Origin: a phage
Length of the DNA stretch: 246 bases
Sequence record: J02485.1
Strand: one strand, 5' to 3'
Every line of letters begins with the position of its first letter. The stretch's first letter is position 1. Positions 1 through 246 of the stretch are shown piece by piece. The notes beneath the pieces were generated by a model. It saw only the letters and a list, made by a program, of their open reading frames with translations, had not been told where the DNA came from and searched no databases. The position numbers were made by a program, and so were the translations under genes.

Positions 1-246
1 CCATCGATCAGCTTATCTGTAGGAGTAATCCTACCAAGATAAGCAGGTCTACCGGCAAATTCGATATACAGTATATCGCCTGCAGTAGCCGTGTTCTGGC
101 ACCTACGGGGTCTTCCAGGGCACGAAGGTTGCGTCTCTACACGAGGCGTAACCTGGGACGCGGCATTATGGCGCCTAATTGTGAATAAATTATCACAATT
201 ACTCTTACGAGTGAGAGGGGGATCTGCTTTGCCCTCTCTCCTCCCA
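1..246 (-). CDS. Internal fragment of a protein-coding gene (hypothetical protein, partial at both ends). Codons occupy + coordinates 243-245, 240-242, ... 3-5. Translation 5'->3' on the minus strand: GRREGKADPPLTRKSNCDNLFTIRRHNAASQVTPRVETQPSCPGRPRRCQNTATAGDILYIEFAGRPAYLGRITPTDKLID
   Basis: Seen in sequence: (1) this is the only one of six frames with zero stop codons across the window (81 codons). (2) Strong period-3 composition in one phase throughout: 35 of 59 A residues on the + strand sit at positions divisible by 3, against 14 and 10 in the other two phases, which makes T the dominant wobble base (about 43%) in this frame. (3) Stop trinucleotides are concentrated in single off-frames: 10 of 12 on the minus strand and 7 of 9 on the plus strand. 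(4) Codon-position composition fits general coding trends (position 1 is 63% purine with T lowest at 12%; position 3 is 61% pyrimidine). Caveats: no start codon in frame, the peptide is rich in Arg, Pro and Thr, and I cannot run a homology search. Confidence 0.45.
11..44. repeat. Imperfect inverted repeat able to form a 13-bp stem (8 bp + 5 bp, with a 2-nt bulge at 35-36) and a 6-nt loop AGTAAT (24-29).
   Basis: Seen in sequence: 11-18 gcttatct pairs with 37-44 agataagc, and 19-23 gtagg pairs with 30-34 cctac. Neither strand has a U/T run after the stem, so it does not look like an intrinsic terminator. Confidence 0.4.
62..78. repeat. Perfect 17-bp palindrome CGATATAC-A-GTATATCG (8-bp arms around a single central A). 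Candidate binding site for a dimeric protein, or a hairpin-forming element.
   Basis: Seen in sequence: 62-69 is the exact reverse complement of 71-78. Symmetry ends at the 61/79 pair (t/c). No function can be assigned from sequence alone. Confidence 0.45.
176..201. repeat. Perfect 9-bp inverted repeat TAATTGTGA / TCACAATTA around an 8-bp asymmetric AT-rich spacer (ATAAATTA). Candidate protein-recognition site: either a dimeric-regulator operator or a recombinase-type core site.
   Basis: Seen in sequence: positions 176-184 are the exact reverse complement of 193-201. The symmetry stops at the next pair outward (175 c, 202 c). The element is a sharp AT-rich island, with 4 G/C in 26 bp against about 50% GC for the window. 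Function is inferred, not demonstrated. Confidence 0.5.
213..238. repeat. Homopurine/homopyrimidine inverted repeat: GAGAGGG (213-219) pairs with CCCTCTC (232-238), giving a 7-bp stem with a 12-nt loop. It sits within a 10-nt purine run (213-222) and a 14-nt pyrimidine run (232-245).
   Basis: Seen in sequence by direct base pairing. The stem is short and the loop long, so structural significance is uncertain. Confidence 0.3.

Follow-up and report, generated by a model that had tools for sequence, protein, structure and literature searches.

What function, if any, does a perfect 17-bp palindrome have in a stretch of phage sequence that is only 246 nt long? An earlier note on this stretch (the window, i.e. 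the whole 246 nt analysed) had pointed out the palindrome at positions 62-78 and had considered it unlikely to have arisen by chance. Both statements were borne out, the second as far as random sequence is concerned. The palindrome, CGATATACAGTATATCG, consists of perfectly complementary 8-nt arms (62-69 and 71-78) around A70. Among 3000 dinucleotide-preserving shuffles of the window, perfect inverted repeats whose arms reached 8 nt or more were present in 30 if the spacer was limited to 1 nt and in 73 if it could extend to 8 nt. The analytic chance expectation for the palindrome is 0.0075. Two roles had been put forward, namely a site bound by a dimeric DNA-binding protein and a stable hairpin in single-stranded DNA or RNA.

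Comparison with phage records by blastn identified the window as the 3'-terminal 246 nt of coliphage Qβ (Qubevirus durum, Fiersviridae). Its identity to nt 3970-4217 of AB971354 is 97.2% over 246/246 nt, it is collinear with the 3' end of the genome, and 28 phage records cover at least 80% of it. Qβ is a plus-strand RNA phage that replicates from RNA to RNA, without a DNA stage. The Qβ record contains four genes in total (A2, coat, A1 and replicase), and the replicase CDS is annotated at 2352-4121 in AB971354. Because one nucleotide is deleted from the window near 103/104, the last 15 codons of the replicase are out of frame, and the frame as written extends to a TAA at 186-188. Sequence searches of plasmids and E. 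coli genomes returned no match to the window, an Rfam search with E values up to 10 returned no family for it, and a scan of the window for promoters and terminators detected none. The fold of the plus-strand window has an energy of -105.2 kcal/mol (z = -7.07), and that of the minus strand is weaker (z = -3.9). The features of the window are collected in Table 1.

Table 1 Features of the 246-nt window at the 3' end of the Qβ genome; structural features are predicted unless a publication is given as basis
Feature	Position in window	Strand	Basis
C-terminal 49 codons of the replicase β-subunit, with TAA stop (149-151)	3..151	+	CDS annotation, translation
Stable hairpin enclosed by the palindrome-bearing helix (Qβ 3975-4018), -21.3 kcal/mol	6..49	+	folding
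3' strand (Qβ 4023-4048) of an interrupted helix; 5' strand (Qβ 3949-3971) just upstream of the window	54..79	+	folding, RNAalifold
Perfect palindrome CGAUAUACAGUAUAUCG (Qβ nt 4031-4047)	62..78	+	sequence; coding
3' strand (Qβ 4049-4058, GUGCAGUAGC; window C at 80) of a 10-bp long-range pairing	80..89	+	P > 0.98
Hairpin directly after the long-range strand (Qβ 4059-4094), -15.3 kcal/mol	90..124	+	folding
R1, last hairpin of the replicase gene, includes the stop codon	126..154	+	folding, PMC8880383
3' UTR (3'-terminal domain), ~95 nt, ends CCCA	152..246	+	folding, PMC8880383, PMC3561173
Altered GC hairpin within the 3' UTR	about 159-175	+	
A-rich-loop hairpin within the 3' UTR	176-201	+	
Small hairpin within the 3' UTR	201-212	+	
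U1 hairpin, loop CUGCUUU at 224-230	213-238	+	
Terminal CUCCCA of the 3' UTR, paired back to 154-159		+	

The identity of the window bears directly on the proposal that the palindrome is a recognition site for a dimeric DNA-binding protein, be it a repressor, a restriction-modification (R-M) controller protein or a nuclease. In form the palindrome is indeed similar to the operators of such proteins, for example the C-protein boxes of R-M systems, with which it shares a 17-bp dyad symmetry and an odd central base. This symmetric form is the only support for the proposal. C-protein boxes and similar operators are located in double-stranded DNA near a promoter, with the cognate regulator encoded nearby, whereas the palindrome is part of an RNA genome, lies within a coding region and is surrounded by a window without promoter-like sites. 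A DNA-binding regulator is not found among the four genes of Qβ. R-M or toxin-antitoxin genes, for which the earlier note had advised a check of the flanking sequence, are likewise absent from the Qβ record, and the motif is not enriched either. It occurs once in the 4217 nt of the genome, even when up to 3 mismatches are allowed, and half-site searches of the Qβ genome revealed no further site besides the palindrome itself. The absence of matches in plasmids and E. coli genomes also speaks against a site of this type. Because Qβ has no DNA stage and only four genes, the repressor / R-M reading fails. Its probability is practically nil, and a DNA-binding-protein site can be regarded as ruled out for practical purposes.

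The palindrome is part of the replicase gene. The frame over it reads TTC GAT ATA CAG TAT ATC GCx (F-D-I-Q-Y-I-A, with TTC at window 60-62), and the 17 nt encode the third base of Phe, Asp-Ile-Gln-Tyr-Ile and the first base of Ala. The Asp codon family (GAY) is reverse-complementary to that of Ile (AUH), and the Ile family in turn to that of Tyr (UAY), and because of this D-I-x-Y-I is nearly self-complementary at the nucleotide level. A full 7-bp stem is formed by 5.6% of the 576 synonymous encodings of FDIQYIA when codon choice is uniform, and by 7.9% under Qβ codon usage. The argument that a rare AUA codon betrays selection for a hairpin was considered and rejected, AUA making up 28% of the Ile codons of Qβ.

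The second role that had been proposed, that of a stable hairpin, held up in part. As a hairpin the palindrome forms only 7 bp, with a CAG triloop. Folding of both strands, as the earlier note had advised, gave -3.7 kcal/mol for the isolated 17-mer on either, an energy that does differ from that of shuffled sequences (z = -3.06 for the plus and -3.67 for the minus strand). The hairpin is also present in the minimum-free-energy fold of the 246-nt window alone. Its stability, however, is marginal, and it is outcompeted once upstream sequence is added. It is the weakest hairpin of the window, the others ranging from -7.3 to -21.3 kcal/mol. In a partition function calculated for nt 2900-4217 (1318 nt) the hairpin of laboratory Qβ has a P of 0.12-0.15. 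In a 123-nt context P is 0.35 in laboratory Qβ and 0.13 in isolate VK, and it does not exceed 0.01 in any of the nine remaining wild isolates. Laboratory Qβ, the strain of the window, is the only one of 11 genomes in which the hairpin and a competing helix with an upstream strand are isoenergetic in this context (-44.0 vs -44.0 kcal/mol). Action of the hairpin on the minus strand was also considered and rejected; there its P is ~0 and that of the mirrored helix at least 0.90. The stable-hairpin interpretation is true only out of context, and these predictions make the 7-bp local hairpin most likely a minor alternative conformer. The window on its own lets this minor hairpin appear native because the predicted competing partner lies outside it.

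In the minimum-free-energy fold of the whole Qβ genome, nt 4023-4048 are paired with nt 3949-3971 around the 3975-4018 hairpin, and the palindrome forms the central and lower portion of the 3' strand of this helix. The partition function for nt 2900-4217 gave a P of 0.76-1.0 for the pairing with 3949-3971 in laboratory Qβ. In the 123-nt context the core of the helix has a P of 0.69-0.95 in natural isolates and of 0.55 in laboratory Qβ. Constrained folds in the same context favoured the helix over the hairpin by about 4-10 kcal/mol, the energies of VK and BZ1 being set aside because the enforced pairs included A·C. Unconstrained RNAalifold analysis of the 11 Qβ-like genomes returned the helix and not the hairpin. 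In this alignment 92-100% of the cells of the helix are paired, and pair 27-89 is found with CG, UA and UG variants. The helix pairs that overlap the palindrome show one-sided changes only, the one true covarying pair lying outside it. Many wobble changes occur in the helix. The joint covariation score of the helix and the enclosed hairpin was reached by 4 of 500 shuffles; the enclosed hairpin itself shows compensatory changes at three pairs in the natural Qβ-like alignment. U3958 and A3959 stand opposite A4037 and U4036 in 10 of the 11 genomes, and in 4 of the 11 the 3960-4035 pair is formed as well. The changes in the variable upstream strand thus repeatedly improve its match to the palindrome, which does not vary. 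At 3957-3959 laboratory Qβ, alone among the 11, has GCG in place of GUA.

One base after the palindrome a second predicted interaction begins, a pairing of 2979-2988 with 4049-4058 that spans ~1060 nt and has a P above 0.98. Both of its strands are conserved in the Qβ-like genomes, M11 and MX1, with changes that are wobble-compatible only. Abutting the 5' strand is AAAGCAG (2973-2979), a sequence complementary to CUGCUUU in the loop of U1, ~1220 nt downstream. Judged from its distance and from the description in PMC4176380, this pairing is probably the RD2-closing, replication-essential interaction of Klovins et al. 1998. The structural evidence throughout consists of thermodynamic prediction and a small alignment of close relatives, and from these we infer that the helix 4023-4048/3949-3971 exists in vivo.

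The 3' part of Qβ RNA has a long history of structural study. A secondary-structure model of its last two domains, RD2 and the 3'-terminal domain, is said to have been presented by Beekwilder et al. in 1995. Klovins, Berzins and van Duin reportedly described in 1998 a long-range interaction that connects the M-site region with the 3' end of Qβ RNA, and Klovins and van Duin, again reportedly, the U1-loop pseudoknot in 1999. More recently a complete cryo-EM model of the Qβ genome with 77 stem-loops was published (PDB 7LHD; Chang et al. 2022; PMC8880383). R1, which is stem-loop 57 of this model (nt 4104-4116), is bound in the virion to an internal coat-protein dimer, and U1 to the maturation protein (PMC8880383). 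The loop of U1 forms an essential pseudoknot with a sequence ~1200 nt upstream (PMC3561173). The window fold matches the published models in R1, in U1, in the pairing of the 3' end to 4124-4129 and in the A-rich-loop hairpin. The predicted ~1060-nt pairing and its adjacency to AAAGCAG likewise agree with published descriptions of the Klovins interaction, of which the palindrome is a neighbour and not a part. In the Qβ RNA literature searched, the palindrome is not singled out. Nt 4031-4047 are also absent from the 59 entries, as printed, of the capsid-contacting stem-loops in Tables S1-S3 of PMC8880383, among which entry 56 is possibly misprinted. This entry is given as 3710-3726, which is out of order and overlaps entry 51, and it may stand for a stem-loop inside the window (PMC8880383).

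A known protein-binding hairpin in the same genome provides a further comparison. The coat-protein operator of Qβ (nt 2348-2367, AUGCAUGUCUAAGACAGCAU) and the palindrome hairpin are alike in having a short stem and a 3-nt loop, both on the plus strand. In the operator the stem comprises 8 bp with a bulged A and the loop is UAA, whereas the palindrome hairpin has 7 AU-rich bp without a bulge and a CAG loop. According to rules reportedly established by Witherell and Uhlenbeck in 1989 and by Lim et al. in 1996, an operator has an adenine at the 3' position of the loop and a bulged A in the stem. When the palindrome hairpin is held against these rules, its loop is found to lack the 3' adenine and its stem the bulge.

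Conservation was followed in a natural Qβ-like set of 11 distinct genomes, including one IMG/VR contig (L018) obtained by a DNA pattern scan. In this set the only changes within the palindrome are C4031U, present in two genomes, which turns the hairpin pair into U·G, and A4035G, present in one genome, which turns its pair into G·U. Five of the seven stem pairs never vary, two vary on one side with retention of a wobble pair and none varies on both sides. These two changes do not discriminate between the structures, because the bases concerned can wobble-pair in the hairpin and have no partner, or a variable one, in the helix. Preservation of the symmetry at orthologous loci, which had been suggested as a check, was found within the Qβ-like isolates, but M11, MX1 and group IV have lost it and still encode a related peptide. 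The peptide at this position is FDIMWI in M11, YDIVWI in MX1 and YKVAWI in SP, FI and NL95, and the conserved form throughout Qubevirus is [FY]-[DK]-[IV]-x-[YW]-I.

Hairpins were not formed by the homologous 17-mers of M11 (0.0 kcal/mol), MX1 (-0.5 kcal/mol) and SP, FI and NL95 (0.0 kcal/mol each). When these genomes were folded independently, the 17-mer of M11 and MX1 paired mainly with a strand 25-140 nt upstream (P = 0.76-0.80). In the three group IV genomes the picture for the equivalent helix is mixed and its support lower (P = 0.47, 0.21 and 0.59), with part of the pairing of the 17-mer in FI and NL95 going to partners more than 140 nt upstream. As far as these folds indicate, the symmetry is confined to the Qβ-type lineage, in which Tyr replaces Trp, and the role of the region as 3' strand of a helix appears to be general across lineages. 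A consensus fold to which M11 and MX1 were added by sequence alignment was poor and uninformative (-9.6 kcal/mol), because the codon alignment leaves the 5' strand 7 nt out of register. When viral and metagenome contigs were scanned with protein guidance, only distant levivirus polymerases of at most 59% identity were obtained. These could not be used for aligning the palindrome region because the similarity is confined to the polymerase core.

Synonymous variation was scored across ten Qβ-like replicase genes, in which on average 36% of the degenerate codons vary. Among the 22 codons that start at Asp560 (nt 4032-4097) only one varies, the second lowest value of 568 windows of this size, whereas 80% of the ten codons before Asp560 vary, so that a sharp boundary lies at nt 4031/4032. 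This block of low variation starts at the palindrome and spans the helix strand, the long-range strand and the hairpin that follows. The five palindrome codons alone are unexceptional, 99 of 585 windows being equally invariant. The near absence of synonymous variation from the 22-codon block points to a constraint at the RNA level which, judged from the aligned genes, appears to be real. Within the palindrome, four of the five synonymous choices are accounted for by the helix (U4034, A4037, G4040 and C4046) and four of the five by the hairpin (U4034, A4037, U4043 and C4046). G4040 and U4043 are the sole synonymous sites that separate the two models, and both are invariant. Some observations run counter to the helix account. 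All Qβ-like genomes retain the palindrome, apart from two changes that are wobble-compatible in the hairpin, and U4043, although unpaired in the helix, does not vary, as selection for the hairpin predicts; the latter concerns a single site. The one-sidedness of the changes in the helix pairs that overlap the palindrome and the equal energies of the two structures in laboratory Qβ also count against it.

It is fairly probable, on the predicted folds and the comparison of relatives, that the palindrome represents the 3' strand of a helix at the RD2-closing long-range junction, and that its self-symmetry is mostly a by-product at the codon level. The palindrome is a replicase coding stretch in plus-strand RNA, the bases of which are constrained as RNA, though most likely not for self-folding. 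Both arms would join the 3' strand of the interrupted helix with 3949-3971, ~80 nt upstream and outside the window. This helix would enclose the 3975-4018 hairpin and would be continuous, without an unpaired base, with the 2979-2988/4049-4058 pairing and next with the 4059-4094 hairpin. Helix, long-range pairing and following hairpin would in this way make up a tight junction at the 3' border of the replicase domain RD2. Such a junction may draw the 3' end toward the internal region bound by the replicase, and this arrangement is reportedly indispensable if minus strands are to be initiated. The codon choices that complete the palindrome (GAU, AUA and AUC) would be the same ones that are required for pairing with the upstream strand. 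The upstream strand resembles a degenerate form of the 3' arm of the palindrome because the choices made in the 5' arm serve both pairings.

The explanation as a helix strand has to be weighed against others. It is improbable that the symmetry has no meaning at the RNA level, being a coincidence of the D-I-Q-Y-I peptide with codon usage that is conserved through protein constraint. Such a coincidence would fit the 5.6-7.9% of synonymous encodings that yield the full stem, the conservation of the peptide motif across the genus and the unexceptional invariance of the 5-codon stretch alone, but constraint on the protein cannot account for a near-invariant synonymous block of 22 codons that has a sharp edge at 4031/4032 and coincides with predicted helices of P > 0.8. 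Selection of the local 7-bp CAG-triloop hairpin as an RNA element in its own right is unlikely, though it deserves consideration. The hairpin could serve as a capsid-contacting, operator-like packaging signal, or as a transient or alternative fold, in one variant formed when ribosomes or the replicase open the helix, which would make the region a two-state switch. It is chiefly because Qβ-type genomes retain the symmetry and because U4043, which has no partner in the helix model, is invariant that a selected hairpin or a two-state switch retains this probability. The symmetry was found in 11 of 11 natural Qβ-like genomes, with wobble-compatible changes that are only C>U opposite G and A>G opposite U, and in 20 of 20 records of the laboratory lineage. 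The fold has a z of -3.06 relative to shuffles, appears in the minimum-free-energy fold of the window alone and reaches a P of 0.15-0.35 in laboratory Qβ. Its 3-nt loop is like that of the true Qβ operator, and many of the 77 stem-loops of the virion model, which are diverse in sequence, touch coat protein (Chang et al., PMC8880383).

These points are opposed by the low energy of only -3.7 kcal/mol and by the small probability of the hairpin in wild isolates (0.13 in VK and at most 0.01 in nine others) and on the minus strand (~0). The hairpin is absent from M11, MX1, SP, FI and NL95, and the natural Qβ-like alignment contains no compensatory double change in its stem. As an operator-like signal it would have a G as the 3' base of the loop where the operator has an A, would lack the bulged A and would be without an entry at 4031-4047 among the 59 capsid-contacting stem-loops as printed, in which the coordinates of entry 56 are garbled (PMC8880383). 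Both natural variants, moreover, are equally neutral in the helix model. A more elaborate arrangement is a three-segment switch, in which the 5' arm (GAUAUAC) has two alternative partners, the local 3' arm and the upstream copy at 3949-3964. This is very improbable. If true, the choice of pairing would make or break a helix stacked on a replication-essential long-range interaction, and translation of the replicase C-terminus, or packaging, would be coupled to whether the 3' end is competent to initiate minus strands. The GCG of laboratory Qβ at 3957-3959, with which the two states are isoenergetic, could in that case be a laboratory adaptation that tunes the switch.

The palindrome is an ordinary part of a thoroughly studied RNA genome, and the system to which it belongs is already known. 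The finding has little consequence beyond correct annotation. A functional switch between hairpin and helix is not required by anything in the results; were the alternative functional, it would add a local switch beside the long-range interaction by which the 3' end of Qβ is brought into position for replication. The locus also illustrates that a short window can disguise a minor hairpin as the native fold when the true partner lies outside it, and that in an RNA virus a DNA-style palindrome can arise as a by-product of codon complementarity together with constraint on RNA structure.

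A block of 22 codons in the lab Qβ genome L001 (nt 4032-4097; window 63-127) showed near-zero synonymous variation, ranking second lowest among 568 windows of the replicase gene. The 5' boundary of this block is sharp and coincides with the start of the palindrome (Qβ nt 4031-4047). Opposite the palindrome, in the strand of the predicted helix that lies upstream of the window, lab Qβ carries GCG (Ala) at L001 3957-3959. In the ten other natural Qβ-like genomes this codon is GUA (Val) in seven and AUA (Ile) in VK and BZ1; U3958 and A3959 are present in all ten. The lab GCG codon leaves the predicted helix with two base pairs fewer, and the local 7-bp hairpin is predicted to be competitive with the helix only in this lab Qβ version.

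The window differs from other Qβ records at several positions. At window 80 (Qβ G4049) it has C, versus G in each of the 32 database records that span this position, a synonymous change (GCG to GCC). In the predicted long-range interaction, G4049 and C2988 form the first base pair. Window 35 also reads C, versus G in the three aligned lab-lineage Qβ records; this site is synonymous as well and variable among natural isolates. One C is missing from the CACCC run at window 103/104, near Qβ nt 4072. The full run was found in 12 Qβ-like sequences and in X14764 and AB971354, among the Qβ records examined; JF719737 retains the base but reads GCCG. As written, the missing C puts the last 15 codons of the replicase in another frame, with the stop now at window 186-188. 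The gap resembles a sequencing error, the record being an old one, or the product of a defective clone.

A cluster of four differences was found in the first 3' UTR hairpin (see table), through which a perfect GGCGCC/GGCGCC stem is lost in the window version. The stem-loop with this stem is listed as capsid-contacting (entry 58, nt 4132-4144; Chang et al., PMC8880383). The restriction of the changes to G and C suggests gel-compression errors. The second perfect inverted repeat of the window corresponds to the 3' UTR hairpin with an A-rich loop (V/V2), with a predicted energy of -7.3 kcal/mol (z = -4.6). A 24-nt stretch of this hairpin showed a 95.8% match (E = 0.8) to a site of phage T4 annotated as terminator / inverted repeat in X04567; this match is probably due to chance.

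Hairpin features of the 3' UTR in the window
Feature	Window	Qβ nt	Sequence or structure
First 3' UTR hairpin, cluster of four differences	159-166	4129-4137	reference GGGAGGGCGCCAAUAUGGCGCC, window GGGACGCGGCAUUAUGGCGCC
Second perfect inverted repeat	176-201		9-bp arms, 8-nt A-rich loop AUAAAUUA

In Table S1 of PMC8880383, the coordinates 3710-3726 printed for stem-loop 56 overlap entry 51 and break the order of the list, where the neighbours are 3926-3938 and 4104-4116; for entry 57 the table gives 4104-4416. The printed coordinates of stem-loops 56 and 57 are probably misprints. The true stem-loop 56 is to be expected at about 3940-4100, and one of the hairpins of the window is a candidate for it. 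The locus tags of NC_001890.1, whose RefSeq title is 'Enterobacteria phage Qbeta', are those of MX1 (MX1p1-4). Its alignment covers only window 81-246, with 71% identity, and the record is phage MX1, not Qβ proper.

The U1 loop CUGCUUU (window 224-230) has its complement in AAAGCAG (Qβ 2973-2979), which directly abuts 2979-2988, the 5' strand of the predicted long-range pairing; the 3' strand of this pairing comes after the palindrome. One upstream site (L001 2973-2988), kept in the Qβ-like genomes, M11 and MX1, is common to the pseudoknot receptor and the predicted domain-closing helix.
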